Assembly: GCA_963716475.1 (NCBI GenBank)
Contig: OY970314.1
Location: 354,981 to 418,980 of the forward strand
Origin: Candidatus Woesebacteria bacterium
GTDB lineage: Bacteria > Patescibacteriota > Microgenomatia > UBA8517
Reading direction: 5' to 3'
DNA: 64,000 nucleotides
The position numbers were made by a program, and so were the translations under genes. Under the pieces are notes generated by a model, which was not told the DNA's origin, ran no database searches, and was given only the letters and a program-made list of their open reading frames with translations. This document shows positions 19,026-38,379 of the stretch, one piece after another. Position 1 is the stretch's first letter; every line of letters begins with the position of its first letter.

Positions 19026-19054
19026 CCAATTTATCTGTATAATTGTGACTACGA

Positions 19055-19138
19055 GCCGAGGTGGCGAAATGGTATACGCAAGGGCCTTAAGAGCCCTCGA
19101 GTGCATAACTCATGCGGGTCCGAGTCCCGCCCTCGGCA
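19055..19138 (+). tRNA. tRNA-Leu(TAA); integration target (attL) of the downstream element
   Basis: GCCGAGGTGGCGAAATGG...AGGGCCTTAAGAGCCCT with a long variable arm then GCGGGTCCGAGTCCCGCCCTCGGCA. The 3' end is repeated at 35858..35886. Confidence 0.75.
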
Positions 19139-20723: not shown

Positions 20724-20892
20724 TAGACTGAGTATTTAGCTCGGACCTGTCGAGTGATTCAAGAAACATAATCATTCGGGATGCCTGATCCTCACATTCT
20801 TCAAGTGTCAAATCAAGGTTGTAACATTTCTTGCAAAGCGCCTGAAATTCAAGAACTTCTTCGTGGTTTAGGTAGCCTGTTAGATATCTCAT
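20683..20892 (-). CDS. small hypothetical protein immediately upstream of the recombinase (candidate directionality factor/regulator)
   Basis: 69-aa ORF with position-based inference only. Confidence 0.25.
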   Translation of the reverse strand: MRYLTGYLNHEEVLEFQALCKKCYNLDLTLEECEDQASRMIMFLESLDRSELNTQSIDNPLGKDNYGRR

Positions 20893-20899
20893 TTTTTTC

Positions 20900-22642
20900 T
20901 CAATTTGTATCGTTTAAAATTTCCTCAAATTCCTTGAAATAATCGGATACAAATTTGTCGTCTTTTTGTATTTCTGATTTTTCAATAAATAGGTTGTCTT
21001 TGAACCTGACAACTTTCTTGGTACGCATTTCTTCGAAATCTTTTTTGGAGGCTTGCTTTAAGATGAAATTGTGGCTGTCGATAAACTTTCCGATTTCCTC
21101 TACCCACTTATCTATTTTGGACGTTAAATCCACTTCGTAAACTTTGGATAATTTTTCAAATAAATCTCTAAAAATTAACAGTGTGGAATAGTATTTTTTA
21201 AGTTCTTCAGTGGTGTTTTTAATTAATTCGTTTAGGCTATTGTCTTCAAATTCTATAACCCTTTCTCCATTTACCTCAGTCTCTTTTACAAACTCCATGA
21301 GCTCAATGTAATTCTTGATTCTGGCTATGGTTATTTGGGAGAAATTAAGGGCAAGTGGTTTACCATCTTCGTCCAGATTGGTGATCAAAAGTTCCCGGTC
21401 CAAATGTACCCCTTTTTGTTCCGGATCGTCATCTGCGTACAAAATTCCCAAGTTCGGATCGTAGCGGTCCACGTACTCATTGTGTTCCGCAATAAACTGA
21501 TAATTCCCTTTGAAGGCATAAAGACTATTTCCGGTGACAATATCTCCTTCCTTACTCATTTTTCCGGCAGAAATGAGGCTATCTAATGCGTTTTTGGATT
21601 TGGTTTTGGCCTTAATCCATTCCTTAAAGATAACATCTGAGGATGATTTGGTTACTCCGTTACAAGTTACAGTCTGTGTGGATTTAAATAGGGGCACATA
21701 TTCATCCAATAATCCGTTATCTAACCATTCCAGACAGACGGCTTTTAATTCCGAATCAACTGTTGTTTTGTGTTTGGCGGCATAATCATTAATGGCTTCC
21801 GCTATATTTTCAGCGGTATAGTCTAACAATGCTTCTTCAGGAGTCAGTTTCTTATCTTCCGATACCGCATCAAACGCTTTTTTAAACCTTTCCTCCTCCG
21901 GCAATGTATCCAGTTTGATCTTTCGTTTGTTAATCCACTTCTTAACAACTTCCTTTATGGGAATTGAAGCAAAATAATGCCAGAATTGATACTCCTTGGC
22001 GTATTGATTGTAGGATTTTTTAACAATCAGGTCTGCTAACTTGTTATTATCATCGGCTGTTAGTTTTTCCTTGCCGTCAAAGAGATTTGCAATTGCCTCT
22101 TCCTCGTCCAAATAATCAGTTTCATATTTAGCATCAGGGAAAAGAATTAATAAATCTTCTTGAAGCTCCTTACTTAAACTCTCAAAACCCAGTTGATATA
22201 CGGCGCGATTATAATCTAATCCTCCTTCTAATTTTACCTCCCGTTGTTTTTTGATTATCTCTAGAGCTTGATCAATCTTTACAAGCTTGATGTCATCCAA
22301 TCTTTCAACCCATCTTTTCAATTCCCTAAAAGCCGGGTAAATTAATAAAAAGTTGCTTATTTGTTTTTCCTGGAAAAAAGTAATTTGTGCATTTAGAAAT
22401 ATGGTCTGGGCATCGAGTTCAGCAAATCCGATTGTTCTCCAGCCTCTAATAAAAAGGTTATACTCTTTGACTTCGTAATTGTTCTTTGGTGTCCAACCTT
22501 CAGTTAAAGTATGTTCTTCTGCCTCGCTAAGTACAGCCTTACCAGTTTTTTGTTTCTCCATATAATTGTGAACAACAAGGAGAACTCTCTCTTTTGGAGT
22601 TAAGTTTTCTGAAATCCTAGCTAGATTTAAATCTTTTGACAT
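20900..22642 (-). CDS. hypothetical protein (580 aa), element cargo
   Basis: Long, acidic, Lys/Glu-rich ORF with no recognisable motif. Confidence 0.4.
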   Translation of the reverse strand: MSKDLNLARISENLTPKERVLLVVHNYMEKQKTGKAVLSEAEEHTLTEGWTPKNNYEVKEYNLFIRGWRTIGFAELDAQTIFLNAQITFFQEKQISNFLLIYPAFRELKRWVERLDDIKLVKIDQALEIIKKQREVKLEGGLDYNRAVYQLGFESLSKELQEDLLILFPDAKYETDYLDEEEAIANLFDGKEKLTADDNNKLADLIVKKSYNQYAKEYQFWHYFASIPIKEVVKKWINKRKIKLDTLPEEERFKKAFDAVSEDKKLTPEEALLDYTAENIAEAINDYAAKHKTTVDSELKAVCLEWLDNGLLDEYVPLFKSTQTVTCNGVTKSSSDVIFKEWIKAKTKSKNALDSLISAGKMSKEGDIVTGNSLYAFKGNYQFIAEHNEYVDRYDPNLGILYADDDPEQKGVHLDRELLITNLDEDGKPLALNFSQITIARIKNYIELMEFVKETEVNGERVIEFEDNSLNELIKNTTEELKKYYSTLLIFRDLFEKLSKVYEVDLTSKIDKWVEEIGKFIDSHNFILKQASKKDFEEMRTKKVVRFKDNLFIEKSEIQKDDKFVSDYFKEFEEILNDTN

Positions 22643-22643
22643 T

Positions 22644-23063
22644 TTAATGTTTTGAAATTGAGCGTTTGCGTTCCAAAAGAACGCTTTCTACCATCTCTAC
22701 CCGTTGGTTCAGATTGGAGGCTTCTAGGGCCTTTAGGATGTGGCTGGCGAGGTATCCTACGGTGTTAGCGATATTTGGGGGAATCTCACCGCTCCGGACG
22801 CCATTTATCGTGCTTTCAAGAAGGGTGGCCACTTCTGTCGGGTCTTTAATGCTTAGTGGTTCAAGATTCAGTTCAACCTTTTTACTGGCAAGGCCACCTC
22901 TGACAAGCGCCATATGTCTTTCGACTTCTACGTCTGGATTGTGGACAAAACAGTACACGCTCCCTTTCATGGATGCGGCACCGCATTGATCTCCGTTTTC
23001 TTTTATATAACTGCATTTTTTCTCTTCCATATAAGTTACGCTTATGGGGTGTACCCCCCTCAA
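22644..23063 (-). CDS. hypothetical Cys4 (zinc-finger-like) protein
   Basis: CSYIKENGDQCG...CFVHNP gives four Cys in the N-terminal 40 aa. Confidence 0.35.
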   Translation of the reverse strand: MRGVHPISVTYMEEKKCSYIKENGDQCGAASMKGSVYCFVHNPDVEVERHMALVRGGLASKKVELNLEPLSIKDPTEVATLLESTINGVRSGEIPPNIANTVGYLASHILKALEASNLNQRVEMVESVLLERKRSISKH

Positions 23064-23143
23064 ATTTGATATACTATTGTTTAGTTCTTTTTGCCTCCTA
23101 GTGGGTTCAGTTCCTAGTAGATTGACTAGGAGGCAATACAGAA

Positions 23144-23707
23144 CTACTCCTTTGTTATAAAAGGAGATTCCCCGTCAAAGATAAGATCCAGGTTGATCTG
23201 CTCTAAACGCTCATCAACCAGTTTTTGCATTTCCTTTGACAGCTTTACCTTTGGTTGGGGTAAAAGGGAATACTTAACGTCCATAGGGGAAGTCCCGTTT
23301 GTACGAGTGATCGTTACATCGTAGTCACGAAGATCTCCCCACGCTTCTGAATCCTCAAGACCTTTCATAAGCCTCTGCAATCCCGCTTGGGTCAACTCAA
23401 GGATCTGAACGTCTCCAAGTTCTTTATTTAAAACGACAAACATCCAAAAATGCTTTCCTCTGTTGCGCGGATCCGTTGCATTTCTTATCTCATCCGGAAG
23501 CTCATCGTATGTTCTAACACGAATTGGAGTTCTCTTTTTACCTTCTTCTTTCCAGTATTCAAAACCAACGATTGCGTTAGTAAGAACCCTGAAAGTGCTA
23601 TCGCCTTCATCAAACTTCATGTAGGCTGATCTGCTTTTTGGCATTTCATAGTCTTTGGGTAATATGCTCATATTTTTCTCACCTCCTTTCCGCTGTATAA
23701 AAAGCAA
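23144..23707 (-). CDS. hypothetical protein
   Basis: 187-aa ORF with no confident family. Confidence 0.35.
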   Translation of the reverse strand: MLFIQRKGGEKNMSILPKDYEMPKSRSAYMKFDEGDSTFRVLTNAIVGFEYWKEEGKKRTPIRVRTYDELPDEIRNATDPRNRGKHFWMFVVLNKELGDVQILELTQAGLQRLMKGLEDSEAWGDLRDYDVTITRTNGTSPMDVKYSLLPQPKVKLSKEMQKLVDERLEQINLDLIFDGESPFITKE

Positions 23708-24033
23708 TACTTATTAAATTGAACTGAACTTTCTAATTTGAGCTGGTCCTTAACGGTCCAGGGTTCCGAGACGCCGAAGAGTGCTTCAATGTTGTTGATT
23801 AGAGGAAATATTACTTCAGCCTTATAAAATTCATGTTTTGGTTTGGAGCTTCTGATATAGGGAAGTGTGTATTCACAAAAGCTTTTGAACGTCTTTGTTG
23901 AGATAATTTTGTCAAATTCAATATATATTTTTGTGACATTTTCATTCTTGATAACAATTGCGTCAGCGTTCCTGTGGCAATAAGAACTAAGTACCTCGTC
24001 GCAGTTTACAAATTTGGTTACTAGGTATTTCAT
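23668..24033 (-). CDS. hypothetical protein
   Basis: 121-aa ORF overlapping its neighbours by a few codons (operon-like). Confidence 0.3.
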   Translation of the reverse strand: MKYLVTKFVNCDEVLSSYCHRNADAIVIKNENVTKIYIEFDKIISTKTFKSFCEYTLPYIRSSKPKHEFYKAEVIFPLINNIEALFGVSEPWTVKDQLKLESSVQFNKYCFLYSGKEVRKI

Positions 24034-25730
24034 ACGGGTTCGACCTCACTTTCTACAGGAAACATATTTTGTGATGCCTCCACGCCTTTCTGTGGCTGAA
24101 TGGGAGCATCGGAAGCACGGGAAGCATCCTCCGAGTTGCCAGCATGGTCTGTGTTTGTATCTGGCAACTTGTCAGCTACCCGTTGATTTGCTCCCATTGC
24201 CTCCATGCTTCCATTCTGGGGCTGGTTTTTCATGGAGGCATTTTCATTTACGGAAGCATTTTTTGTTTTCTTGAGGGTGATCGTGTTATTGGTAATTTCC
24301 TCGCCGTGGGTTACAGATATGCCCATCGCCGCAAGATTGGTTTTAATAAGATTTATCTTTCTCCAAAGCCATGTTGCAGATTTAGGGAACCCGTAACTTC
24401 CTCCAACTTCGAGTTTGTCTGCTGTAGCAAGTTTGGATAGTTCGGTAAAAAGGTCTGAGCTTGCCCCTGACCAGTCGTTATGGATTGACATAAACTCCAG
24501 AATTGTTTGGGCGACAGGGGAAGCGTCAATTGCAGCCTTATTTTGTCTGGCAATATTCTTTTCAAAAGCCTGTAAAAATCCATCAACTTCATATCCCAAA
24601 GAAACAGCTGCTGCGGCAGCTACTCTAGCGTAATCAGCCATACGGGGTCTGGTAGGAAGTTTAATATCCTCCTTAATCTTTAGAACCTGAGAAGCTATGT
24701 CAAAGAGGGCTCCAAGGATCTGGGGTTTTTCTTTTTCAAAATCATTCCAGAATTTAGTTTCTTCTCTGCGGTTTGAGTCACTGATTCTTTCAAGAGTAAA
24801 GATCAAACTTCGGTCAAGCAAATCAGCCTTCTCGGCTACCAGGTTTATTCCGTTTAGTCCAACTGCCACCAATAACTCAAATATAATATCGGAATCATCT
24901 GAGAATAATTTCCGTTTTGAAAAACCTAAACCTGTCACAAACCCGGATAAAGAATCCGAGCCTTCAGTTGAGAGGTAACTTAAATTATCAAAATACAGAC
25001 AATAATGGTGACTTGCCATTTGTGTCAGTTCATCTATGGCAGACCTCATCTTCAGTAGGTCAACACGGGAAGGGTCAATTAGCTTTCTGATGACACGGAG
25101 AAGGGTTGATTTCGCGCTGCCTTGCTCTCCTGTCGCGATTATCATTGCCCGAGGGATATCGCAGAAGAGAATAGCCACAAGATAAGTCAAAAACAAAATC
25201 TTGTCCTCGGAGTTTTTGAGGTTAACATACTCGAGTATTTTGCTCAATGCACCGCCTTTTTCAGGAATAGACTGAACCTTTTGATGAGTAAATCGTCGAA
25301 ATAGCGGCGCTTTTGCTTTTACAACTTCCCAGCCTGAGGGAGTTATCTCAACAATGTTGACGTCATCTCCAATATCGTAGGAGATAGTTTCCTCAATTTT
25401 AGCTATGCGATTAAAGAGTGATATTTTTATGCCTTCGTGTTGAGATTTTCCTTCCAATGCAGCCATAGCCTGAGAAAAGATTTCACTGGAAAAACCTTCA
25501 TTAAAAGCTTCCCAATAAACTCCTGAAACCCATCGTCTGAATACCGCACCGGAAACGGAGTAACCAACCGCGGGCCTATCTGGTAACTGTACTTGGGGTT
25601 CGCCAAATTGATCCAAAAAGAACTTGCAACCTCTCTTTAGCACCAGTGTTATCAATATGTCGCCAACTTTCTGCTGTTTGACTAATTCATTAGCCGCTTT
25701 GTCGAGTACTTCTTTATTTTTAGCTTTCAT
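24030..25730 (-). CDS. P-loop NTPase of the phage/plasmid primase-helicase (D5/VirE/P4-alpha C-terminal) type
   Basis: Walker A IIATGEQGSAKSTLL and Walker B HHYCLYFDNL. Lies immediately downstream of a CHC2 primase zinc-finger gene. Confidence 0.55.
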   Translation of the reverse strand: MKAKNKEVLDKAANELVKQQKVGDILITLVLKRGCKFFLDQFGEPQVQLPDRPAVGYSVSGAVFRRWVSGVYWEAFNEGFSSEIFSQAMAALEGKSQHEGIKISLFNRIAKIEETISYDIGDDVNIVEITPSGWEVVKAKAPLFRRFTHQKVQSIPEKGGALSKILEYVNLKNSEDKILFLTYLVAILFCDIPRAMIIATGEQGSAKSTLLRVIRKLIDPSRVDLLKMRSAIDELTQMASHHYCLYFDNLSYLSTEGSDSLSGFVTGLGFSKRKLFSDDSDIIFELLVAVGLNGINLVAEKADLLDRSLIFTLERISDSNRREETKFWNDFEKEKPQILGALFDIASQVLKIKEDIKLPTRPRMADYARVAAAAAVSLGYEVDGFLQAFEKNIARQNKAAIDASPVAQTILEFMSIHNDWSGASSDLFTELSKLATADKLEVGGSYGFPKSATWLWRKINLIKTNLAAMGISVTHGEEITNNTITLKKTKNASVNENASMKNQPQNGSMEAMGANQRVADKLPDTNTDHAGNSEDASRASDAPIQPQKGVEASQNMFPVESEVEPV

Positions 25731-26338
25731 ATTTGTAATTTGCTAACAATCTCCATAAATCCCATTTCCGGGTTAGTCTTTTGCATAAAATCGATTGCAT
25801 TGTTGCCATGGGCGGCACAGCCAAAACAGTGCCATGAACCATTCGGATAAATGTAAAAAGAAGGATTACGTTCTTCGTGGAATGGGCAAGCTACACGAAA
25901 CTTGCAACCACACGGCCTTGCGTCAGGAATCAAATCTTGAGTCGGGTACTCCCTTGCTTTTTGGACCTTGGCGCTGGTAGTATATTTAACTCCTGGTTCA
26001 TAGCCGGAGAGCCGTAGCCAGTATTTTAACCACTTTTTAAAGTTTTCTTCATGTAGTTCGACTGAACATTCCAACACTTTTTTGTGAAAATCGCTGAGGG
26101 GTTTGGCAGTTTTTATTTCGGCAAAAAATTTTTCCCTATCTGCATACAGTTCTTTAATTTTGGCTACGGCAACATCTTCGACGCAACTCTTAAATTCTGG
26201 TTCAATAGGAATGTACCGCGGTGGATTTGTTACTTTCCTTTTGAATTTAAGTGGGAAAGCCGTGTGGTTTATAACGAGTTGAGGTTGGCTATCCATAAAT
26301 TTGTTCACTGAAACCCAATCGATTCGAGATGTTTTCAT
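25727..26338 (-). CDS. CHC2-type primase zinc-finger protein
   Basis: C-terminal CPFHEERNPSFYIYPNGSWHCFGCAAHGNNAIDFM matches the DnaG/primase CHC2 zinc finger. Confidence 0.6.
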   Translation of the reverse strand: MKTSRIDWVSVNKFMDSQPQLVINHTAFPLKFKRKVTNPPRYIPIEPEFKSCVEDVAVAKIKELYADREKFFAEIKTAKPLSDFHKKVLECSVELHEENFKKWLKYWLRLSGYEPGVKYTTSAKVQKAREYPTQDLIPDARPCGCKFRVACPFHEERNPSFYIYPNGSWHCFGCAAHGNNAIDFMQKTNPEMGFMEIVSKLQI

Positions 26339-26345
26339 AATTTCT

Positions 26346-26612
26346 TTATGTTTGTTGATACAATTTGTCCTTTAATTGTTTTATTGCCATCACAAATTTA
26401 CGAACATCAACCATAGACTCCGGTGAGTCCTCCGATGAATAATTGAAGTTTTGAAGTAATCGCTCACGTTCTGGAGTATCTAAAAAAACAAATTCGGAGC
26501 GTCTTGAATCAGTACGATCTATGTTGACAAGTTCCAACCCTTTGGTAAAAAGGAAAGCCGCAACATAAAAGTTGCTTGTTTTAAAATATCTGTCGTCACT
26601 TTTATCCTTCAT
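26346..26612 (-). CDS. hypothetical protein
   Basis: 88-aa ORF with no motif. Confidence 0.3.
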   Translation of the reverse strand: MKDKSDDRYFKTSNFYVAAFLFTKGLELVNIDRTDSRRSEFVFLDTPERERLLQNFNYSSEDSPESMVDVRKFVMAIKQLKDKLYQQT

Positions 26613-26943
26613 ATGCGATTAGTCCTAAAAATTCGATGGGTGTCGCGGATTCCAATAGATACTCGCCGTTTTCTTCTCGGAGGATCTCTGAAAAAGTCAG
26701 ATGATTTGTATCAAGAAACCTCTTCTTTCGATAGGCTGCTTTTATTAAATCTCTAATCTTGTTATTCAGAATATTGTTTACGAAAGTCGAGGCTGAAGCG
26801 TACATGGGATTAAACAGATTGCCCTTAAGCCAAAGGTGAATCCGAAGTTCCTGGGCAACATCTTCCCAGTCCATATTGGGAACCTGGGCCTTGATGGCCT
26901 TTGCTACGATAACATTCTCATATTTAGAAAAAATTATACTCAT
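26602..26943 (-). CDS. sigma-70 region-2-like protein (minimal ECF-like sigma factor; no region 4 detected)
   Basis: DWEDVAQELRIHLW...FNPMYASASTFVNNILNNKIRDLIKAAYRK resembles ECF sigma region 2. Confidence 0.4.
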   Translation of the reverse strand: MSIIFSKYENVIVAKAIKAQVPNMDWEDVAQELRIHLWLKGNLFNPMYASASTFVNNILNNKIRDLIKAAYRKKRFLDTNHLTFSEILREENGEYLLESATPIEFLGLIAYEG

Positions 26944-27148
26944 ATCTATTGAAGGACTCTTGGAGTGGTTGAGGCCAATAAAAAAGGGCTCTCAATCAAC
27001 CCCAATATGTCCATAATTCATATTGGAATCAATTGATAGCCCTTCTTATCGCTACCTGGGTTAGCCTTGTTAGCTAACTATGTAAATTATACCATAAAAC
27101 CTAAAAACTTTTCGGGTTTTTATCCCCTCTATAGTAATATACGACAAT

Positions 27149-29074
27149 TCATGCACCCCAACCCCAATCAATTTCCCTGTAGTTAATATTTTTACACCTG
27201 GGACATCGTGCCGATAGGGTAAGGTTCCCATAATTTAGCTTTACCTTTATGGGAATTTGATTCGCCGTCCACAGGCTGACCACATTATTATGCGCGAACT
27301 TATAAAGCGTTCTTTCTCCACAAAAATCGCACTTCCACTCACCAACTTTAATTTTTGACCAGTCTTGCCCAATATCCAAGGCCCCAGATTCAATCCTTGC
27401 TAAACACTCATCACAAATAGGAGTATCCGAGACCTGACTATCACCGTGTTGTTGATGTCTAATTACCGGTTTTGCTCTACATACTCTACAGAACAGAAGC
27501 TCCATTTGGAATTCAATATCGGAAAGCTCAGCGCCCTTATTTTGCCAGTGCTGAGCGTTCTTGTGGACCTTTTGATATTCCTTGTTATAGAAATCTAGCT
27601 GTTTTTCTCTGGTCAAAGTTTTTAATTTTTCGCTTCGCTTAGACCAAAAAAAATTGCCAAAATTATGCTCCTCATCCCAAGCTTTGTTTTCTTTTTCCCT
27701 TATCTTTTTATGACAGACTTCAAGTATTTCCCATAACTCTCTTTTTAGGTCACTAAGCCTGAAGTCTATGGCATTATGTATTTCGCTTTTAACAAAAAGT
27801 TCATAATCCTCCTTTTTGGCCTCCTCGGAAGTAATTTCCTTCTTTTGCAGCTTCTGCCATATTTCATCGTCCCAAAGACTAAGAAACCCGCGTTTATTTT
27901 CAGCTAATTCTTTCGTGGCTTGTCGTAAAACCTGTTCAACTGATAACTTGGTATTCGGGTCCAGGTCGTCGATTGTTAAACTTTCCTCAAGCTCGATTGG
28001 TCTAACACCGTTGGCAATAAAGTGCATATCTCCATACCTTTTTTCATAATCCTTTAGTTCTTCCTCGAAGCCCTTAATTCTAGTTTGTACTTCATCATCG
28101 GCAAACTCTTTGTTGTCCGCCTTCGCTGCCCATATCTTAAAACCCAAGACGGTTGCCCAAATTGATTTCGTTTCAGTTCCGTGGACATACTCGCTTTTTG
28201 GTGCAAGGTATGGACGAATACCCCTATCTCCATAAAGTAACTCAAAGATGGGTGGCAATTTTTTACCAAATACAGCCTCCGCGACCTCTAAAACTAGGTC
28301 ATAAACTGTATATAGCTCCTGGGCTAGCATTGCACCACCTTTAAATAAATCCCTTCGCCATTGCGGATGAAGATGGATGTAGTAATACCAATTTTCAAGC
28401 GGGTCAATCTGGATAGCAACTTCAGCAATTGTCTTCAAAAGGACGTTGAGATCGGATTCAGAAAGCGAATACTTCTTTAATAATTCTGGCCTACCTTTAA
28501 TAAGTGAAGTATCAAAATATAATTCCGGTGCACCGTTAAAATGCCGTTCCTTGTACCGGCTAAATCTTTGGTACCTCGAACTTTTAAGAGAGTGGAGTAG
28601 TCTCAAAAAATTATTAAAATTTACACATAGATCAACCACATTATTAGGAAACGATTTACTACCCCTCTTGGCAATTGTTATGTTGAAAGCAAATCCAGAA
28701 GCCCCCCAACTAACCATTCTGAACGCTTGTTGTTTGTAAAAGTCTAAATCCTCATTGACCCAAAGTTTTCCTTCGTGAACTTGGTTTTTTGACAACGCGG
28801 TAATTATAAAAATTTGATGGGGACTATAATAATTAACTAAAGCTCCTTTTTCTGCCCCATTTTCGTGAACTTTTTCTTTAACCTGAAGTAGTGGTTCTAA
28901 AAACCCATCGGATTCTGCTGCTCTTAGAAAACTCTCATCTACATTGTTAATTTTTTCAGTGCGGGAGTAATCATATTTACAGAACTCTATAAAAGATTTT
29001 TCCGAAAGTAACTTCTCCTTTATAATTTCAAATGGATATTTATTCTCATCTTTAGTACTCATATTTATATTCAC
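27149..29074 (-). CDS. hypothetical 641-aa protein with C-terminal multi-zinc-ribbon module
   Basis: CRVCRAK...CDEC, CDFCGERT and CPRCKNINY CxxC pairs in the last 120 aa. Confidence 0.4.
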   Translation of the reverse strand: MNINMSTKDENKYPFEIIKEKLLSEKSFIEFCKYDYSRTEKINNVDESFLRAAESDGFLEPLLQVKEKVHENGAEKGALVNYYSPHQIFIITALSKNQVHEGKLWVNEDLDFYKQQAFRMVSWGASGFAFNITIAKRGSKSFPNNVVDLCVNFNNFLRLLHSLKSSRYQRFSRYKERHFNGAPELYFDTSLIKGRPELLKKYSLSESDLNVLLKTIAEVAIQIDPLENWYYYIHLHPQWRRDLFKGGAMLAQELYTVYDLVLEVAEAVFGKKLPPIFELLYGDRGIRPYLAPKSEYVHGTETKSIWATVLGFKIWAAKADNKEFADDEVQTRIKGFEEELKDYEKRYGDMHFIANGVRPIELEESLTIDDLDPNTKLSVEQVLRQATKELAENKRGFLSLWDDEIWQKLQKKEITSEEAKKEDYELFVKSEIHNAIDFRLSDLKRELWEILEVCHKKIREKENKAWDEEHNFGNFFWSKRSEKLKTLTREKQLDFYNKEYQKVHKNAQHWQNKGAELSDIEFQMELLFCRVCRAKPVIRHQQHGDSQVSDTPICDECLARIESGALDIGQDWSKIKVGEWKCDFCGERTLYKFAHNNVVSLWTANQIPIKVKLNYGNLTLSARCPRCKNINYREIDWGWGA

Positions 29075-29136
29075 AAAAAAACCCGTTTATCACGGGCAGT
29101 GTAATATCTGTATTTTACGCCTTTCCAAATAAAACG

Positions 29137-29997
29137 CTACTTAGCTGGAGATGCTTTATTCAAAAATTCTGAAATAATATTTACCGGAATTATTACGCCA
29201 AGGTTTTGATAGTTGCCAGTTAAAACAGCTGAAGGAATTCCAACCATGCAATCATTTTGATCAACAGCAAGCCCTCCTGAATTTCCATTATCTATATTGG
29301 CAGACGTTAGGATATCCCCATCATCAGAAAAACTACTTATGATTCCGTCTGTAATGGTTAGATTGTATCCGCCACTTGTAACTGGATAACCATAAATCCT
29401 AACTGCGTCACCCAATTTTGGACTATTGTTTTTGCAACTACTAGGGAACACAAAAGCAGAAAAAGTTTTAGGGTAGGTACCCCAAACCTTCCCGTCCGAA
29501 TCCTTATAAGCAGAGGTTACTACCAATACTGCCATATCATATTGCTTACTCAATTTAGGAACAATATATGGCTCTGCATTGTAGATTTCAGCGGGGGCAC
29601 CAGTATTTGGGTCAGGCAAGCTAACCAAACAGCCTTTTGAACCAGCTATAACATGATTGTTTGTTAATATCGTTCCGTCCGTTAACCATATTGTTCCTGA
29701 TCCTCCTTCTTTGTTATCGCAAAATACGTTGACAACAGAAGATGCTACATTATACGGTACGGTCGGGCTAGGTGACCCACCAGACGGTGTGTTGGAATTG
29801 GGAGAATTTTGAGAGTAGGCAATTATAAAAATTACCAATAGTATTAAAAAAACTAAAATTAATCCCTTTCTACGTTTAATCCACCCGCCTAAACGGTACT
29901 TCAATCTTGAGAGTCTCCTCCATACGATTTTCTGCCCACAATTCGGGCAGAATCTTTCATCCGACTTAATTTGATTGCCACAATTTTTACAATACAT
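29137..29997 (-). CDS. N-terminal zinc-ribbon + TM + trypsin-like (S1) serine protease
   Basis: MYCKNCGNQIKSDERFCPNCGQ zinc ribbon and a TM helix. Candidate S1 triad motifs LTNNHV (His), DMAVLVV (Asp) and GNSGG (Ser). Confidence 0.55.
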   Translation of the reverse strand: MYCKNCGNQIKSDERFCPNCGQKIVWRRLSRLKYRLGGWIKRRKGLILVFLILLVIFIIAYSQNSPNSNTPSGGSPSPTVPYNVASSVVNVFCDNKEGGSGTIWLTDGTILTNNHVIAGSKGCLVSLPDPNTGAPAEIYNAEPYIVPKLSKQYDMAVLVVTSAYKDSDGKVWGTYPKTFSAFVFPSSCKNNSPKLGDAVRIYGYPVTSGGYNLTITDGIISSFSDDGDILTSANIDNGNSGGLAVDQNDCMVGIPSAVLTGNYQNLGVIIPVNIISEFLNKASPAK

Positions 29998-30008
29998 AAT
30001 AAACTTTC

Positions 30009-30383
30009 TTAATCCTCTCTCATTCCGATTGTTGGAACAAAGCGCCCTATGTTATTAATAAGGTATATTGGCGTAAGAAAAAAAGAAATCATACCCCACC
30101 ATCCAAGGAAAAGCGTAGTTAGAGTCCTCTTTTTAAACTCACGATTTATACATTTTTTACAAAGATTGCCTTTTATAGACGAACTCTGACGCATAACCAG
30201 CATGCCTATATTTTGGTAAAACTCGACATATTTTGTTGGAGTAAGGCTGCCACACACCTGACAATGGTTATTAGTCGGTCCAAAAACCGGCGAAGAGGGA
30301 TTATTCTTATTAATTATTGTTCCACAATGCTGACAGAAGTTGTTGCTTTTAGGATTGCTTTTTCCACATTTTTCGCAGAACAT
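30009..30383 (-). CDS. zinc-ribbon membrane protein (paralogous N-terminal DZR-like domain)
   Basis: MFCEKCGKSNPKSNNFCQHCG plus further CxxC pairs and a C-terminal TM helix. Confidence 0.45.
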   Translation of the reverse strand: MFCEKCGKSNPKSNNFCQHCGTIINKNNPSSPVFGPTNNHCQVCGSLTPTKYVEFYQNIGMLVMRQSSSIKGNLCKKCINREFKKRTLTTLFLGWWGMISFFLTPIYLINNIGRFVPTIGMRED

Positions 30384-30509
30384 AATCTTTGAGAAATTTG
30401 CCTAAACTACCCCCAAATTGAATTGTACTCTAAAAATAAATCCATTTCTTAGATTTTATTGAAAAATAGGTGTAGAATCAATTTGGTTGGGTAGTCTAAA
30501 ATAAATAAT

Positions 30510-31133
30510 ATGTACTGCAGTAATTGTGGGAAACACAACTCCGAAGGCAGTAAGTTTTGCGAACACTGTGGCTCACAGCTTATAAAAGACTCTGCAGAAA
30601 ATAAATCCGTTAGCCAGGCTAAGGCTGTAGTTGATCCCCCAAAAACAGAAAATAAGGAGCCTTTGCCAAAAGATAAAAAAGTAAATGCTGGACTTGGGGG
30701 CTGGTTGGCATTAGTTGGACTAGGAATGATCGTGGGGGTTGTTTGGCAAAGCTACAGCATATTTGGATATTTTTCCTATTTATCAAATACTTATACTATT
30801 CCTGGTTACTCAAGTCTTTTATGGTTTGAGTTTTTAATAGGAGTCGCCTTTATAGGTTCTCTTGTTTATCTAATCTATTTATATTTCAAAAAGAAGAAGA
30901 ATTTTCCGAAATACTATGTTTTTTATTTAATCGCCTCTATAGTTTTTGCATTATTGGATTGGCTCTGGGTAGCTTCATTACAGGCTCCGACTCAAGAACT
31001 TCAAAAAATACTAAACGACACGGTAACGCAAAATTCAAGCAATGTATCCCGAACCGTAGTGCAATCAGTAATTTGGATTTTGTATATGTTAAAGTCGAAA
31101 CAGGTTAAGGCAACTTTTATTGAAGATAAATAA
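30510..31133 (+). CDS. zinc-ribbon membrane protein (paralogous N-terminal DZR-like domain)
   Basis: MYCSNCGKHNSEGSKFCEHCGS followed by 4 TM helices. Confidence 0.5.
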   Translation: MYCSNCGKHNSEGSKFCEHCGSQLIKDSAENKSVSQAKAVVDPPKTENKEPLPKDKKVNAGLGGWLALVGLGMIVGVVWQSYSIFGYFSYLSNTYTIPGYSSLLWFEFLIGVAFIGSLVYLIYLYFKKKKNFPKYYVFYLIASIVFALLDWLWVASLQAPTQELQKILNDTVTQNSSNVSRTVVQSVIWILYMLKSKQVKATFIEDK

Positions 31134-31141
31134 ACTAAACT

Positions 31142-31741
31142 ATGAAAATTATTAAGCAAGTCGTCTATGTTGTAGCAGCGCTGGCAGCATTCGGTTTGGT
31201 CAGGTGGGGTATTTCAGCTCTTCAAACTAACAATGCCAGTAATAACACTGCCAATTATTTTACAAATGAGACTTGGCAACCATTTAACTCAACAGAAGGC
31301 GGTTTTAGTATTAACTTTCCTAAATATCCAACAACCAATCCCTCAGAAACCCAAAGCACGGGTGGTGTGACCTACGTTTCTACACAATATAGCGCCGAGG
31401 GCAGTGACGGAGATAGTTATGTTGCTATTTACGGTTATTACCCAAATCTTTTATCAAATAAATACAATGCAAAAAGTGGAATTGAAGGTAGCATTAACGG
31501 TATGGTTAGCTCAGATAAATCGAACCAGTTAATATCCTCAAACTTTGTGAATGTCGGTAGCCATCAGGGAGCGGATTACGTAATTTACAATAAAGACGTG
31601 GCTTCTTATTTGAGAGGAAGAGTAATTGTTGTTTTAGAAGGAAGTAATCCTGTCAAAATATATATCCTCATGGATGCGTCAAAAAACGCAAACGCCACAG
31701 ACAACTATACAAAATTTATTAACAGTTTTGAGATTCAATAG
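31142..31741 (+). CDS. secreted hypothetical protein
   Basis: Signal/TM N-terminus with a Ser/Asn/Thr-rich body. Confidence 0.4.
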   Translation: MKIIKQVVYVVAALAAFGLVRWGISALQTNNASNNTANYFTNETWQPFNSTEGGFSINFPKYPTTNPSETQSTGGVTYVSTQYSAEGSDGDSYVAIYGYYPNLLSNKYNAKSGIEGSINGMVSSDKSNQLISSNFVNVGSHQGADYVIYNKDVASYLRGRVIVVLEGSNPVKIYILMDASKNANATDNYTKFINSFEIQ

Positions 31742-31742
31742 T

Positions 31743-31762
31743 TAGTGAGTTGGAGTGGGGGG
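31743..31762 (+). repeat. intergenic motif TAGTGAGTTGGAGTGGGGGG (copy 1 of 4)
   Basis: Same motif at 32688..32709, 34949..34965 and 35753..35770, all in plus orientation. Confidence 0.5.
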
Positions 31763-31807
31763 TATTTCTTAGGTTTTCCTGAAAAAGTGGTGTAAAATCG
31801 ACTTGTT

Positions 31808-32671
31808 ATGAGTAAAGGGAAAGCTCGAACCAAAAAATCTCAAAAAGTTAGCGAAAAAACCACTATTTTCTCCACTTCGGCAAAGTATCTAATGGCCATA
31901 ATTGTTGCTCTTGGTTTTGTTGCGGCATTTTCTGTATATGCAAAAGCCCAATTGGAAAAAAGTCCTTTTCTCGCAAGCCCAACACCAATTGCTCTCCCCA
32001 CCTTCACACCTATCCCCGTGACACCCACGCCTACAGTTGATCCTAACCCGATAATTACCTGCAATATCAATGTCAGTTGTGGGGGTGGTTCAAAACAATT
32101 GAGACAGAGTGTCTGTAACAACATGATATGTTGCCTCTACAGTACTGAGTGCGGTGGGCCAAAATTTGTAGCAAAGAGTCAATGTCCTGCGAACGGGACA
32201 TGCTGCCAGGTTGGAAATAAATGGACTTATTACTTATCGAAAGATAAGTGCACACAGGATCAAAATGCTTACAATTCCAGTGTCAACCAAAACAATAACA
32301 CTTATATTCCGTCTACCTATACGCCACCAACCTACTATACGTGTACCCTTTATTATCCCGCATTAAAATTATATCAAACATACACTTCACTTTATAAAAC
32401 AAAGGCTGAATGTGATTCCGCCCAGGCTTCTCTCAACCAAGGTTCACAAACGGTTCAATATACAGCTCCCACAACAGCTCCATACCAAGCTCCACAAATG
32501 ACCAAAAGCCAGTGTCAAGCAAGTGTAAATGATAAATATGGGAGTCTTATGCGCAGTTATGGGTGCTACTATCCGTGCCCGGCCACCGGAGACTGTGGAA
32601 GCTCCTCAGTGTGTGAAGCTTATTGGTATCAAGCTCAAAAAGACATGAACAGCTGCAATCAATATCCCTAG
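31808..32671 (+). CDS. secreted Cys-rich, Pro/Thr-linker protein
   Basis: N-terminal TM segment, a PT-rich linker and more than 25 Cys. Confidence 0.45.
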   Translation: MSKGKARTKKSQKVSEKTTIFSTSAKYLMAIIVALGFVAAFSVYAKAQLEKSPFLASPTPIALPTFTPIPVTPTPTVDPNPIITCNINVSCGGGSKQLRQSVCNNMICCLYSTECGGPKFVAKSQCPANGTCCQVGNKWTYYLSKDKCTQDQNAYNSSVNQNNNTYIPSTYTPPTYYTCTLYYPALKLYQTYTSLYKTKAECDSAQASLNQGSQTVQYTAPTTAPYQAPQMTKSQCQASVNDKYGSLMRSYGCYYPCPATGDCGSSSVCEAYWYQAQKDMNSCNQYP

Positions 32672-32687
32672 CTCGATCTATTTTATA

Positions 32688-32709
32688 AATAGTGAGTTGG
32701 GTTGTGGGG
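32688..32709 (+). repeat. intergenic motif AATAGTGAGTTGGGTTGTGGGG (copy 2 of 4)
   Basis: See 31743..31762. Confidence 0.5.
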
Positions 32710-32726
32710 TTATTGTGTTTTAAAAG

Positions 32727-34892
32727 TTAATCAATAAACTCATCTAGTATTTTTAAAGCTTCTTCGGTCAAATTTTCTTTATAACTAGGTATTTCTATAT
32801 TAAATTTTTGAAAATAAATCTGATGAATAAACTTTATTAACTTCTCATCTAAATAACCGTGCGTATGAAGAGATGAGCTCTTAGCATCCTTTGACCTAAA
32901 ACCATTTAAAAATAACTTACCCATACCACAATATATGACAAAGATTTCGGTTAAAATCTCATTTTCCTGCTCGTCGTCAAGTGTAATTTTTTCCTCATGA
33001 ATTAAAATATAGTGTGCCAATTCATGAGCCAAAATATACCCAAACCCAAATGGGTCTTTTGTGAATAATTTTGGGATACTAATTTTTGAACCAGAAATAA
33101 AGCCTCCGATTCCTTGTTCCTCGAAAAACTTTGACTCTGCCATTTCTACGTCTGGTAAACTTTTCAGGTTTAGAATACGACCCAAATAACGCAGCGCCTT
33201 AAATGGATCACCCTCTTTAAGCATTGAGTAAAAAGCCCCATCTGGTTCAAAAACTGTTATCTCTTTGTTTTCCAGGACTGCATTAAGATAATTAAATTGA
33301 TTTAATACATACTGGCGAATATCTTTACCTTTTATCCCAATTTCAAATCCAGTACCACCAAAAGAAAATGTGTTCCCTTTTTGGACAAATAATTTTTGCC
33401 CACTTTCTGAATATGCCTCTAAACCTATTTCCATATCTGCTCCGACATTAACCCTTATTTCAATAACTCTGTTATTCAATGCTTGAATTTTCCATACGTT
33501 AAGGCTTTGAAAAACGTCCCCCTCTTTTGTAGTTAGGTGGATTTCCACAAATTTTGATTTGTTCTCACCTGTTATCTCGAATGTGTGATTCTTGGATGTC
33601 GGAATTGCTGAATCTTTTCTTGTCATTTCTATAAATTCACCGCCAGACAACCTTACAAGAATAGAAAATGGAATAACTTCAAGAGCAAGAAAATTTGTTA
33701 CCTTACCGGTTAGTACTCTGGAATAATTAAAAGCTCCTATAGCGAGTAATTTTTCATTTCCAAAAGCCACACCTGCTCCGACAAAAGCTTTATGAACAAG
33801 CTCTTTTATGCTTTGTTGAATAAATGAATCGCCAAGAATAATTATGCTTTCGAAATTTTTCTTTTTCTCTACTTCAAATATCTCAGAGGCCAACTTCTCT
33901 ACTGATTTAACCAGATCGTCAAAAGTCGTGGCCAAAAAGTTATGAAGTGCGCCCAGGTTAATTTTTGTATCAAGAGTTTGAAAGCTTCCATCTTTACATA
34001 GGACAAATGGTAGATTTAGCTCATATGTTTCCTCAACTTGTGACGTTTTCAGAAATTCATTGACTGCGTCTAAAATCCGTACAATATTTTTTGGGTCTTC
34101 TAACGCGAAGTTGCGAGAATCTTTGCCAATCTCGGAAATAAAAAAATCGAGCACAGTTTGCTCTATTTTTCTTCTAGTGATTGTATTTGTATATTGAGTG
34201 CCTATTGTGTACAAAACACCGTCTCCATAATTAACCAATGATACGTTTGTGTTGTCCTGGGATATAGAAACAAAAAGATATTCTGTACCCCTGTTTTTAC
34301 TATCGTTTTTTGGTTTCTTTGAAAATAATTTTTTGTATAACGGAAGTCTCGCATATTTTTGGATGGCTTGACGATCAAGATTTTTTTTCTGTTCTTCGCG
34401 GCTCAAACTCCCATGGTTCAATCTTACAAGCAAGCTGTCAATATTAGATTGACCAAAGAAGGCCGCCGGTTGGGACATTATTCTTATATCTTTTACTCCA
34501 ATTAAGGAAAAGGCTCTCTCTATTAAACTATGCCAATAATAATATTTATCATAAGGAATGGTTATACAAACATTATCAATTCCATCGTCGGGGAGATAGG
34601 TTTTGATTTTATTTAATATAGATGCAAATATAACTGCCAAGCACCTTTCAACACTTATTTGTTCCTTATCAATAACTACACCGTTCAATTCAATAATCTG
34701 GTCCAAATCATAAATTAAACTATTCTTTTCGGTAAGAAATTTATTAAAACCTTCATCGCCCGGAAAAACTTTACCGTTCACAAAAGCTAAAATGTTTCTA
34801 ACTTCATAAATTTTACAATTATCAGGATCTATTCCATTGACCAAGAACGCAGCTTTTGTGGTTTTTGTATTGAAATCAATTCCAATATTCAT
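32727..34892 (-). CDS. DnaK-like Hsp70 (nucleotide-binding + substrate-binding domains) fused to a C-terminal ImmA/IrrE-type HExxH metallopeptidase domain
   Basis: Hsp70 signatures in order: IGIDFNTKTTKAAF, ITIPYDKYYYWHSLIERAFSLIGVKDIRIMSQPAAFFG, ILGDSFIQQSIKELV, and SBD-like LEVIPFSILVRLSGGEFIEMTRKDSAIPTSK. C-terminal LAHELAHYILIHEE. Confidence 0.55.
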   Translation of the reverse strand: MNIGIDFNTKTTKAAFLVNGIDPDNCKIYEVRNILAFVNGKVFPGDEGFNKFLTEKNSLIYDLDQIIELNGVVIDKEQISVERCLAVIFASILNKIKTYLPDDGIDNVCITIPYDKYYYWHSLIERAFSLIGVKDIRIMSQPAAFFGQSNIDSLLVRLNHGSLSREEQKKNLDRQAIQKYARLPLYKKLFSKKPKNDSKNRGTEYLFVSISQDNTNVSLVNYGDGVLYTIGTQYTNTITRRKIEQTVLDFFISEIGKDSRNFALEDPKNIVRILDAVNEFLKTSQVEETYELNLPFVLCKDGSFQTLDTKINLGALHNFLATTFDDLVKSVEKLASEIFEVEKKKNFESIIILGDSFIQQSIKELVHKAFVGAGVAFGNEKLLAIGAFNYSRVLTGKVTNFLALEVIPFSILVRLSGGEFIEMTRKDSAIPTSKNHTFEITGENKSKFVEIHLTTKEGDVFQSLNVWKIQALNNRVIEIRVNVGADMEIGLEAYSESGQKLFVQKGNTFSFGGTGFEIGIKGKDIRQYVLNQFNYLNAVLENKEITVFEPDGAFYSMLKEGDPFKALRYLGRILNLKSLPDVEMAESKFFEEQGIGGFISGSKISIPKLFTKDPFGFGYILAHELAHYILIHEEKITLDDEQENEILTEIFVIYCGMGKLFLNGFRSKDAKSSSLHTHGYLDEKLIKFIHQIYFQKFNIEIPSYKENLTEEALKILDEFID

Positions 34893-34948
34893 TTTTATTG
34901 GTATTTAGAGGGCTTATGTGAATCTTAGCATCTGGGGATAAAAATAAA

Positions 34949-34965
34949 CAGTGAGTTGGAGTGTG
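34949..34965 (+). repeat. intergenic motif CAGTGAGTTGGAGTGTG (copy 3 of 4)
   Basis: See 31743..31762. Confidence 0.5.
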
Positions 34966-35015
34966 TATTCCAAAGATTTCTCCAAAAAAAGCATAGACTC
35001 TGGAAATGAATGGAA

Positions 35016-35726
35016 TTATGAAACAAATCTTATCTCAGCACCGTTTTTAATATATTTAGTAATGGTTGGTATTCCTCGTGTCTCTCCGAAAGAATCTGTA
35101 TAAATGTCCCCACCACCTTGGCGTTCAACCTCAAAACCTAAATTTTTATAATCCTCATCTTTCAAATCCCAATAACCAAAGGGGAAATCAAATAATATTG
35201 TGGGTTTCACTTTTTTATGAAAGTCTTCGTAATGTTCTTCTAAATATGCCGTGATAACGCGTGTATATTCACCACCTTCTTTTTTGATAGTTCTGTCTAC
35301 GACTCCTAGTTCAAGATAATCCTTCATTTGATCTTCGTCACCGGCCACTACTGCAGAAAATATATCGTTTTTACTGGACTCTGGTAAATAAATATCTGTA
35401 CCTCCAGAATTTTGGACAATAAAAGCATCTTCGCTGGCTAAATACACCAATTTAATAAACGCCTTCTGTGATATATTTCTATAATAATCTTTCCTCCATT
35501 TGGTTACTTCTCCCTTTGACCATTCCTTTACCGGTTTACCTTCTAATCCACTCTTAATACCAGATATTTCTGCAAATAACTTATTTTGATAAATAGCATT
35601 TGAGGCTTCTATAAAAAACTTATGTGAAGGTGTGGAGCCCCTATTAGCCTCAAGTTTTTTGATACGCTTGTCCAATACATAAAAGATATAATAAATAACT
35701 ACACCCACAATTACATAAGTCCACAT
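35016..35726 (-). CDS. hypothetical protein with N-terminal TM anchor
   Basis: 236-aa ORF with no motif. Confidence 0.4.
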   Translation of the reverse strand: MWTYVIVGVVIYYIFYVLDKRIKKLEANRGSTPSHKFFIEASNAIYQNKLFAEISGIKSGLEGKPVKEWSKGEVTKWRKDYYRNISQKAFIKLVYLASEDAFIVQNSGGTDIYLPESSKNDIFSAVVAGDEDQMKDYLELGVVDRTIKKEGGEYTRVITAYLEEHYEDFHKKVKPTILFDFPFGYWDLKDEDYKNLGFEVERQGGGDIYTDSFGETRGIPTITKYIKNGAEIRFVS

Positions 35727-35752
35727 ACTCGTATTTTACACCTTTATATGTA

Positions 35753-35770
35753 TAGTGAGTTAGGGTGAGG
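35753..35770 (+). repeat. intergenic motif TAGTGAGTTAGGGTGAGG (copy 4 of 4)
   Basis: See 31743..31762. Confidence 0.45.
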
Positions 35771-35857
35771 AATAAAGTCTCCGGTATTCGTTAAGTTCCT
35801 GAAGTTTAGAAGCTAGAATATCAGTCTCACTTGGAGTATCATTCAGATAGGCGAATA

Positions 35858-35886
35858 GGTCCGAGCCGAGTCCCGCCCTCGGCACA
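35858..35886 (+). repeat. attR-like direct repeat of the tRNA-Leu(TAA) 3' end
   Basis: AGGTCCGAG[CCGAG]TCCCGCCCTCGGCACA versus 19115..19140. A weaker third copy AAGTCCGAGTCCCGG sits at 35941..35955. Confidence 0.65.
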
Positions 35887-35961
35887 GTAAGTTCAAATTA
35901 CATAAATATTCATTTTAAACAATAAAATATAGCCTTGAATAAGTCCGAGTCCCGGAAAGAG

Positions 35962-37497: not shown

Positions 37498-37570
37498 CGG
37501 AGTGTAGCGCAGTTGGTAGCGCGCCACGTTTGGGACGTGGAGGTCCCCGGTTCGATCCCGGGCACTCCGA
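37498..37570 (+). tRNA. tRNA-Pro(TGG)
   Basis: CGGAGTGTAGCGCAGTTGGTAGCGCGCCACGTTTGGGACGTGGAGGTCCCCGGTTCGATCCCGGGCACTCCGA. Anticodon loop TTTGGGA. Confidence 0.8.
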
Positions 37571-37653
37571 CTTAACAATGTTAAAACATACAAATAGTTA
37601 CCGATTTTCCCCGATCACGATTCCGGGCTAGTCTTCTATTATTTAATATTTAT

Positions 37654-38262: not shown

Positions 38263-38276
38263 TAAAATAGGCTTGC

Positions 38277-38347
38277 GCGGGATTAGTTAATCGGCTTAAC
38301 AACAGCTTTCCAAGCTGTGAAGAGGGGTTCGACTCCCCTATCCCGCT
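38277..38347 (+). tRNA. tRNA-Gly(TCC)
   Basis: GCGGGATTAGTTAATCGGCTTAACAACAGCTTTCCAAGCTGTGAAGAGGGGTTCGACTCCCCTATCCCGCT. Anticodon loop TTTCCAA. Confidence 0.8.
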
Positions 38348-38379
38348 CAAAAATCAGATTTTGAGGGGTCAAGCTTTGC

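Follow-up and report, generated by a model that had tools for sequence, protein, structure and literature searches.

The late sigma factor gp55 of phage T4 is a mobile-element-encoded protein of 185 amino acids (aa) that is related only to sigma region 2, has no region 4 and needs only a -10-like promoter element, and it depends on gp33 and on the sliding clamp gp45. Cascades that combine an extracytoplasmic function (ECF) sigma factor, an anti-sigma factor and regulated proteolysis are exemplified by sigmaE-RseA-DegS-RseP and sigmaW-RsiW-PrsW. Terminator/antiterminator leaders are known from mobile elements, as in the rep attenuation of pT181 and pIP501, the CI-RNA immunity of P4 and the nut- and Q-type antitermination of lambda. 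Here we compare with these systems a locus found in 64,000 nucleotides of a Candidatus Woesebacteria genome (assembly GCA_963716475.1, contig OY970314.1, positions 354,981 to 418,980; "the window" denotes this whole 64-kb stretch). It holds an integrated element that encodes a 113-aa sigma-like protein, a 641-aa protein and three zinc-ribbon membrane proteins, one of them a protease, which a first-pass annotation had read as a single sigma/anti-sigma/site-1-protease circuit. What we find is the control module of an integrative element of Patescibacteria, both conserved and uncharacterised, with unrelated envelope cargo beside it. In our view, the region is probably made up of two functionally separate parts of one element, namely this control module, gated by transcription termination, and a set of exchangeable envelope genes.

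The element and its conserved backbone

The host genome is of the Patescibacteria (candidate phyla radiation, CPR) type, and the contig that carries the element is 0.98 Mb long. A 24-nt direct repeat, which is the 3' end of the tRNA-Leu(taa) gene at 19055-19139, is found on the plus strand at 19120..19143 (attL) and again at 35866..35889 (attR), with 23/24 positions identical. Since this repeat delimits it, the element spans about 16.7 kb (19120-35889), an interval that holds every gene of the finding. At one end, abutting the tRNA gene, lies a large serine recombinase (19110..20723, minus strand) with Resolvase, Recombinase and Zn_ribbon_recom domains; related elements carry their recombinase at the same end, adjoined by a small HTH_17 gene. 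With such a recombinase at its end and attachment (att) repeats at a tRNA, this is a large-serine-recombinase integrative element. It resembles described ones in having the recombinase at one end, a tRNA 3'-end target and a short direct repeat, whereas its backbone was not found in the literature searched. In Pfam/PHROG-type scans, none of its proteins was recognised as belonging to a capsid or to conjugation.

Sixteen distinct related elements were recovered (loci are labelled L001 and so on). A homologue of the 641-aa protein followed by an RNA of ~100 nt is present in 16/16 of them, and a 22-nt box, the sigma-like gene and a gene for a DUF5659 protein are present as well in 13/16. The order after the 641-aa homologue in those 13 is sigma-like gene, DUF5659, small open reading frames (ORFs), Prim-Pol/primase and then, where the contig reaches that far, the serine recombinase. 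Synteny of the genes for the 641-aa protein, the sigma-like protein and DUF5659 is seen in L002-L009, L014-L022, L026, L030 and L065, and homologues come from metagenome-assembled genomes (MAGs) of Levybacteria, Saccharibacteria, Sungbacteria, Nomurabacteria and other Patescibacteria. The upstream arm is variable, with glycosyltransferases in L004 and L006, AAA_5 in L002, lipid-synthesis genes in L016, peptidoglycan-binding proteins in L012, and toxin-antitoxin-like and NERD-like genes in L022.

The 113-aa sigma-like protein (26602..26943, minus strand) consists of an ECF-like sigma-2 domain (residues ~4-77) and a conserved 36-aa tail. Its match to Pfam Sigma70_r2 (PF04542; E 9e-5, 22.6 bits) falls just under the cut-off of 24; the same domain is carried by 14/16 of its homologues, all of them 88-122 aa long. 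A profile of the family matches sigma-2 domains in the PDB (CnrH at 2.6e-5, RpoE, SigW and SigL), and 13 NCBIfam sigma models match the protein in region 2 only, stopping at about position 80-120 of models 165-210 long (for TIGR02937, positions 6-79 are matched). Sigma70_r4 gave no match to it at E<=1, and region 4 is absent from all element proteins scanned. Invariant residues of the family are D28, Q31, E32, L33 and W38 in regions 2.1-2.2 and N61, I63 and D65 in region 2.4, and regions 2.3-2.4 are conserved as well as 2.1-2.2, so that the signature residues for core binding (2.1-2.2) and for -10 recognition and melting (2.3-2.4) are both kept. The first-pass annotation, which had seen a likeness to ECF region 2 alone and had proposed comparison with sigma70_r2 and r4 profiles, was right on this point; judged by its sequence, the protein is a true sigma-2-only protein. 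By analogy it may be set beside T4 gp55, being likewise element-encoded and related to sigma region 2 only. In contrast to gp55, no gp33 or clamp analogue was recognised in this element, and sequence similarity between the two is not detectable beyond the general sigma-2 profile. Since the definition of ECF sigma factors requires both sigma-2 and sigma-4 (PMC7826278), the protein falls outside it. Another likeness, cited in that review, is the SigO-RsoA pair of Bacillus subtilis, in which RsoA is a small protein that stands alone, resembles sigma region 2 in some of its segments and has its gene beside that of SigO, its partner (MacLellan 2009, Xue 2016, via PMC7826278); an adjacent partner of this type, supplying region 4, is not present here.

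A sigma-2-only homologue of 88 aa with 41% identity was also seen at L010 10001-10267 and L011 2339-2605. There it stands alone, without the 641-aa protein, DUF5659 or the RNA, and the contig around it (~48 kb) is phage-like, carrying genes for terminase, HNH and YopX. Sigma-like proteins of a single domain are therefore present in phages too.

The 641-aa protein (27149..29074, minus strand) represents a new family with an N-terminal alpha/beta domain, a long helical middle, two C4 zinc ribbons and a terminal DWGW. The four CxxC pairs that had been noticed at its end are indeed a family trait, since seven of the eight cysteines are invariant and one nearly so among 20 homologues. Members are 590-660 aa long and occur in 16/16 related elements, and none was found in a scan of IMG/VR. 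(The ORF starts at GTG; the NCBI/ENA call is of 637 aa, from an ATG.) The DUF5659 protein (88 aa; 26346..26612, minus strand), whose gene overlaps the sigma-like gene by 11 nt, is a small, very highly conserved alpha/beta protein with no helix-turn-helix. The backbone of 641-aa protein, RNA, sigma-2-only protein and DUF5659 was not found in IMG/VR, and the literature searched held no description of DUF5659 or of Patescibacteria integrative elements with this backbone.

Between DUF5659 and the recombinase, replication and uncharacterised genes of the backbone (20900..26338, minus strand) encode proteins of 580, 139, 187, 121, 566 and 203 aa. The 203-aa protein is a CHC2 DnaG-type zinc finger, the 566-aa protein a P-loop protein, and the 187-aa protein matches a PHROG family with no assigned function and, weakly, SSB families. 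The 580-aa and 139-aa proteins are present again in related loci, and in relatives Prim-Pol stands where the window has its replication genes. Replication genes of the primase type are carried by the element itself. For the 580-aa, 566-aa and 641-aa proteins, nothing specific came out of sequence searches against Pfam, PHROG, PADLOC, NCBIfam and the PDB.

Box, promoter and leader RNA

A spacer of ~200 nt, conserved much more strongly than the proteins, separates the 641-aa gene from the sigma-like gene. The spacer opens with the 22-nt box TTGTCGTATATTACTATAGAGG (27126..27147, minus strand; consensus TTGTCGTMTATTRTAnTAGAGG), which starts 2 nt after the 641-aa stop codon and is a candidate operator or cognate promoter element. 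One copy is found per element, or two where the RNA is duplicated. The box is missing from the three elements that lack the sigma-like gene and DUF5659 but keep promoter and RNA, which links it to these two proteins, though on few independent events. It contains GTCGT(A/C)TA, which may be compared with ECF motifs of the -35 AAC / -10 CGT type; a conserved -35 at a fixed distance was not seen. The idea that the box is a general promoter of the element was rejected, as there are just 1-2 copies per element and other matches in the window are at chance level.

Next comes a sigma-70-type promoter region for the RNA (27084..27125, minus strand) with an extended -10, TGgTATAAT (TATAAT at 27091-27086). 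Relatives have TTGACn-N17-TAtAAT at the same place, and the -35/-10 pair ends 3-12 nt ahead of the RNA. The RNA itself, a structured leader of ~100 nt (26977..27083, minus strand), comprises a 7-bp P1 hairpin, the nearly invariant linker GGUAGCGAUAAGAAGG and a 21-bp terminator hairpin with a U-run, and for the window copy the folding z is -5.8. The covariance model R1, for which 11 sequences served as the seed, finds the RNA after every 641-aa homologue, including three distant ones outside the seed with E 1e-11 to 1e-13, and reveals second copies between sigma-like gene and DUF5659 in five elements. When 17 sequences were aligned, 95% of cells were paired and 14/28 pairs were compensatory, and the covariation score was 0.50, as compared with 0.26 in shuffles (0/500) and ~0.1 in slid controls.

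An alternative helix, P2 (27056-27051 with 27040-27035; GGUAGC with GCUAYC), ties up the terminator's base on the 5' side. This helix too covaries (alignment columns 28-33/45-50: 99% paired, 3/6 pairs compensatory, 0/500 shuffles, slid controls <=0.25), and because a covarying P2 excludes the base of the terminator, this is the signature of a terminator/antiterminator switch. A covarying stem with its U-tract and a covarying, mutually exclusive helix are what an attenuator leader would be expected to have. The R1 score of the sense strand is 85.7 bits and that of the antisense strand 28.7, and many pairs are G-U, which would be A-C mismatches on the other strand; it thus appears that we are dealing with a sense-strand RNA rather than with a site in duplex DNA. 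The leader RNA is previously undescribed and matches no Rfam family: only tRNAs reached the gathering score in the window, and an E-value scan of the RNA gave only spurious matches to miRNA hairpins, with scores far under gathering. We considered and rejected a leader peptide encoded within the RNA, since short ORFs are found in some copies and are not conserved. Of 80 loci from a pattern scan of metagenomes for the RNA core that were scanned with the model, 78 were chance matches and 2 real.

One clade has box and RNA duplicated between the sigma-like gene and DUF5659 (L020 12365-12463, L021 3145-3243, L026 12398-12498, L030 614-712 and L065 1516-1615). There the box itself supplies TTGTCG(-35)-N17-TAAAAA(-10) directly ahead of the RNA.

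In order of transcription, the control module leads from the 641-aa protein through the box, the sigma-70-type promoter, the leader RNA, the sigma-2-only protein, DUF5659 and the primase/replication genes to the recombinase. The leader can fold either as the short P2 hairpin or as the long intrinsic terminator, and we propose that the terminator gates transcription into the replication/excision operon (sigma-like gene, DUF5659, replication genes and recombinase). A trans-acting factor that stabilises P2 and its invariant loop may then give read-through. The 641-aa zinc-ribbon protein is the best candidate for this antiterminator, since it is the only gene invariably linked to the RNA. The sigma-2-only protein would bind the core of host RNA polymerase as a minimal sigma factor or as a modulator of sigma, along the lines of T4 gp55 or RsoA, and the box would be a candidate DNA site of this protein or of DUF5659. 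As in the leaders of mobile elements mentioned above, an intrinsic-terminator leader with mutually exclusive helices stands ahead of the replication/late operon of a small element. In contrast to them, an antisense promoter or target repeats were not identified here, and there is no sequence or Rfam relationship.

Probable envelope cargo and alternative explanations

In the whole window, no ORFs but the three zinc-ribbon genes begin with M-x(0-3)-CxxCG-x(6-16)-CxxCG. The first (29137..29997, minus strand) encodes a zinc ribbon, a transmembrane (TM) segment and an HtrA-like Trypsin_2 serine protease. A double zinc-ribbon (DZR) protein with a C-terminal TM anchor (30009..30383, minus strand) is the first gene of a two-gene operon with the protease, behind a promoter-like site at 30481-30453. 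The third gene (30510..31133) is divergent, lies on the plus strand and encodes a zinc ribbon and a polytopic DUF2569 membrane protein (DUF2569 Pfam E 7e-22). A terminator-like hairpin with a T-run (29081..29097, minus strand) stands between the protease stop and the 641-aa start. The heads match Zn_Ribbon_1 (PF13240) above its cut-off of 25 bits, with E 6e-8 and 32.6 bits in the protease, 2e-6 and 27.7 bits in the DZR protein, and 2e-8 and 34.0 bits in the DUF2569 protein. By hydropathy the protease has one TM helix (45-63), the DZR protein one at its C-terminus and the DUF2569 protein 3-4. Residues 1-44 of the protease include 13 K+R and 2 D+E, and the K/R-rich N-terminal segments together with hydropathy lead us to predict that the zinc ribbons are cytoplasmic and the protease domain extracytoplasmic.

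The protease domain matches Trypsin_2 above the Pfam cut-off (E 1.2e-14), and its LTNNHV, DMAVL and GNSGG align with VTNNHV, DLAVI and GNSGG at the catalytic-motif positions of DegQ (6z05). It thus has an HtrA catalytic domain with its triad, as a DegS-type site-1 protease does. Like membrane-anchored proteases of the HtrA/DegP family (S1C, Trypsin_2), it has an aligned H/D/S triad, an N-terminal anchor and a predicted extracytoplasmic location. Unlike them, it has a cytoplasmic Zn_Ribbon_1 head and gave no PDZ match in Pfam. (The NCBI/ENA call, of 255 aa, omits the zinc-ribbon head of this 286-aa ORF.) Much of what the first-pass annotation had said of these genes is thereby sustained, including the zinc-ribbon starts followed by TM helices, the trypsin-like triad, the coordinates and the setting on a mobile element, and the ribbons came out on the cytoplasmic side when topology was checked, as its model needed. 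Its gene layout has to be corrected in that the third gene lies on the opposite strand, and in that the 641-aa and 113-aa genes, taken to be upstream, are 3' (downstream) of the protease on the minus strand. The three proteins had also been called paralogous, which holds for the zinc ribbon alone, as BLAST similarity among them is confined to the first ~25 residues and the remainders are unrelated.

These proteins would belong to a cargo made up of the DZR and anchored HtrA-like protease operon, the divergent DUF2569 protein and further anchored or secreted proteins, which may remodel or survey the envelope, as a counterpart of the glycosyltransferase or lipid genes that sister elements carry. 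Among the elements with enough upstream flank, just 3/13 have zinc-ribbon membrane proteins or the protease, namely the window, L014 and L022. The linkage to the sigma-like gene that had been expected in relatives is thus kept by the 641-aa protein, the RNA and DUF5659, and not by the membrane proteins. The Zn-ribbon-TM-protease architecture is common, with ~40 of the top 150 representatives aligning from residue 1. Because they sit in a variable arm, with a promoter and terminator of their own, and because the protease belongs to a large independent family, the zinc-ribbon membrane proteins behave as exchangeable cargo, and our best reading is that they are not wired to the sigma-like protein.

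According to the circuit proposed in the first-pass annotation, the zinc-ribbon TM proteins are anti-sigma factors that hold the 113-aa sigma at the membrane, and site-1 cleavage by the protease in response to envelope signals sets it free. The sigma-2 homology is real, the ribbons and the protease are predicted to lie on the sides of the membrane that such a scheme needs, the same three membrane proteins are found beside a second element (L014), and a Zn-ribbon protease is found in the cargo of L022. The locus also resembles the ECF cascades in that an ECF-like sigma-2 protein, an anchored HtrA-type protease and single-pass proteins with cytoplasmic N-termini occur within 5 kb. However, a conserved linkage of the sigma-like gene to membrane proteins, as seen in those cascades, is absent, with 10/13 of the elements that have the sigma-like or 641-aa backbone carrying no such protein, and the L014 cluster lies on the opposite strand. 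The parts do not fit either, since class I anti-sigma domains clamp two surfaces, one of which, region 4, the sigma-like protein does not have, and the zinc-ribbon proteins gave no match at E<=1 to anti-sigma Pfam families (zf-HC2, RskA, RsiW-type). Their N-termini are CxxC-x9-12-CxxC, matching Zn_Ribbon_1, DZR and other zinc-ribbon-type families, and the HxxxCxxC of the zinc-binding anti-sigma (ZAS) motif is absent. The protease has no PDZ domain, and Peptidase_M50 (site-2 protease) was found in none of the element proteins scanned, the rest of the chromosome not having been searched for it. Furthermore, the DZR protein offers almost no extracytoplasmic part to cleave, the hairpin at 29097-29081 separates its operon from the 641-aa gene, and the protease family, with 124 representatives at E<=1e-30, reaches far beyond the 16-23 clusters of the element family. 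Taken together, this makes the circuit very improbable. Another explanation for the same cluster, that it is anti-phage or superinfection-exclusion cargo, would suit its place in the variable cargo arm of a mobile element, near an Hsp70-like/HExxH protein, and the protease domain does give weak PADLOC matches to RT-Protease_XI (1.8e-11) and LmuA (1.4e-4). We think it unlikely, as those matches extend over nothing but the generic trypsin fold, the remaining components match none of the PADLOC defence models, and the domain is predicted to lie outside the cell, unlike cytoplasmic defence proteases.

For the control module, too, other explanations may be considered. The conserved intergenic element might act as DNA, either as a replication origin or as a single-strand initiation (ssi) hairpin read by the element's primase, which would agree with the primase-type proteins that the element encodes and with the constant position of the intergenic element in the backbone. 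Typically, ssi signals are hairpins in which the loop is conserved. In contrast, the asymmetry between strands and the many G-U pairs speak for RNA, and the U-run after a long stem, the -35/-10 pair before it and the mutually exclusive helix are the marks of a transcribed attenuator. Single-stranded DNA of the sense strand would still allow G-T pairs, so that the argument weakens a hairpin of that kind less than it does a duplex-DNA site; overall a role as DNA is improbable. As for the sigma-2-only protein, it could be a decoy that occupies the sigma-2 docking site on the core and damps transcription of the host or of the element, or an elongation/antitermination factor that works with the leader terminator. 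Retention of only the core-binding and -10 domain would fit this, as would a box in just 1-2 copies per element, rather than at the several operons expected of a sigma regulon, and the homologue that stands alone in the phage-like contig L010. Nevertheless, regions 2.3-2.4, with their N61/D65 signature, would be needless in a pure decoy and are as conserved as 2.1-2.2, and the box co-occurs with the sigma-like gene, so we regard this explanation as doubtful. More ambitiously, the 641-aa protein, box, leader RNA, sigma-2-only protein and DUF5659 could form an undescribed transcription-takeover system of Patescibacteria mobile elements, in which a protein-controlled RNA switch releases a region-4-less sigma factor that reprograms the RNA polymerase of a minimal-genome host, so that the element passes from silent integration to replication/excision; this is a speculative possibility that we put forward tentatively.

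We thus favour a termination-gated control module beside exchangeable envelope cargo, although several observations count against it. Termination and antitermination at the leader are predicted only, the antiterminator effector stays a candidate, and since neither the 641-aa protein nor DUF5659 has recognisable fold relatives, their roles are guesses. P2 is short, with 6 bp against the 21 bp of the terminator, and the RNA alignment behind the pair counts was itself fitted to the covariance model. The co-occurrence of box and sigma-like gene, 13 elements as against 3, represents few independent events, the elements being related by descent. Finally, the zinc-ribbon cluster recurs beside a second, diverged element, that of L014 (a Levybacteria MAG), where orthologues of all three proteins were found with 42, 54 and 56% identity (54% for the DZR protein and 56%, in L014/L015, for the DUF2569 protein). 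Because of this recurrence, a functional tie between cluster and element may exist in the L014 sub-lineage. No convincing att repeats were found for the L014 and L022 elements, and for that reason the place of the L014 cluster inside its element is unproven.

Further cargo, flanks and implications

Beside the L014 element, at 4925-9573, five or six consecutive genes begin with one and the same zinc-ribbon head; their products are a 111-aa protein, DUF2569, a 228-aa protein, a DZR protein, a TPR protein and the protease. This suggests a family of membrane proteins that arises as the head domain is shuffled. In the flank of the same element (L014 1205-3804) there is a repeated promoter-proximal motif of a different kind, the 23-28-nt TCGCTAAAATTCCCCAA, which occurs five times, each time ahead of a small gene. 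TTCTGCTATAAT -10 regions recur near its copies (after the copy at 1216 and at 1809-1828).

The remaining cargo of the window element (31142..35726) consists of 199-aa and 287-aa (Cys-rich) anchored or secreted proteins, both on the plus strand, and, on the minus strand, a 721-aa protein and a 236-aa TM protein. The 721-aa protein (32727-34892), near attR, has a partial Hsp70-like ATPase core (PF00012, E 4e-20) and a C-terminal HExxH (LAHELAHYILIHEE), and no PADLOC model matched it; it may represent a chaperone/metallopeptidase fusion of an unusual kind or else defence-type cargo. Four copies of a 15-nt motif, TAGTGAGTTGGnGTG, are found with <=1 mismatch on the plus strand (31743-31757, 32690-32704, 34949-34963 and 35753-35767), only in intergenic spacers of the right arm and in one orientation whatever the direction of the neighbouring gene. 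By chance 0.23 copies would be expected, and four were reached in 0/100 shuffles. The motif is absent from 28 loci (L001-L028) and could serve the cargo genes as an operator or as an activator site.

The same element was assembled independently as L001, a Logan contig (ERR12035932) of 11,557 nt. One of its ends lies inside the recombinase near the tRNA junction and the other 52 codons into the DUF2569 gene (window ~30665), a break that may reflect strain variation in the cargo arm. The chromosomal flanks (window 1-19139 and 37498-40817) are unusually rich in tRNA genes, 14 in 64 kb, with a run of five between 12367 and 13041, and GC skew is steadily negative along the window.

A large share of bacterial diversity belongs to the Patescibacteria, most of which are uncultured and whose mobile elements and gene regulation are very poorly known. 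The lesson for annotation is that zinc-ribbon-headed membrane proteins beside a sigma-like gene should not be read as anti-sigma factors unless there is evidence of conserved linkage. The locus described here defines a recurrent family of small integrative elements in this group, with a shared control module made of four uncharacterised parts: the 600-650-aa family, DUF5659, a sigma factor reduced to its polymerase-binding/-10 domain, and an RNA switch supported by covariation. The leader RNA is a clean new candidate for studies of attenuation, and the minimal sigma factor, if it truly initiates transcription, would be a counterpart of T4 gp55 in the cellular world and a compact tool for orthogonal transcription.

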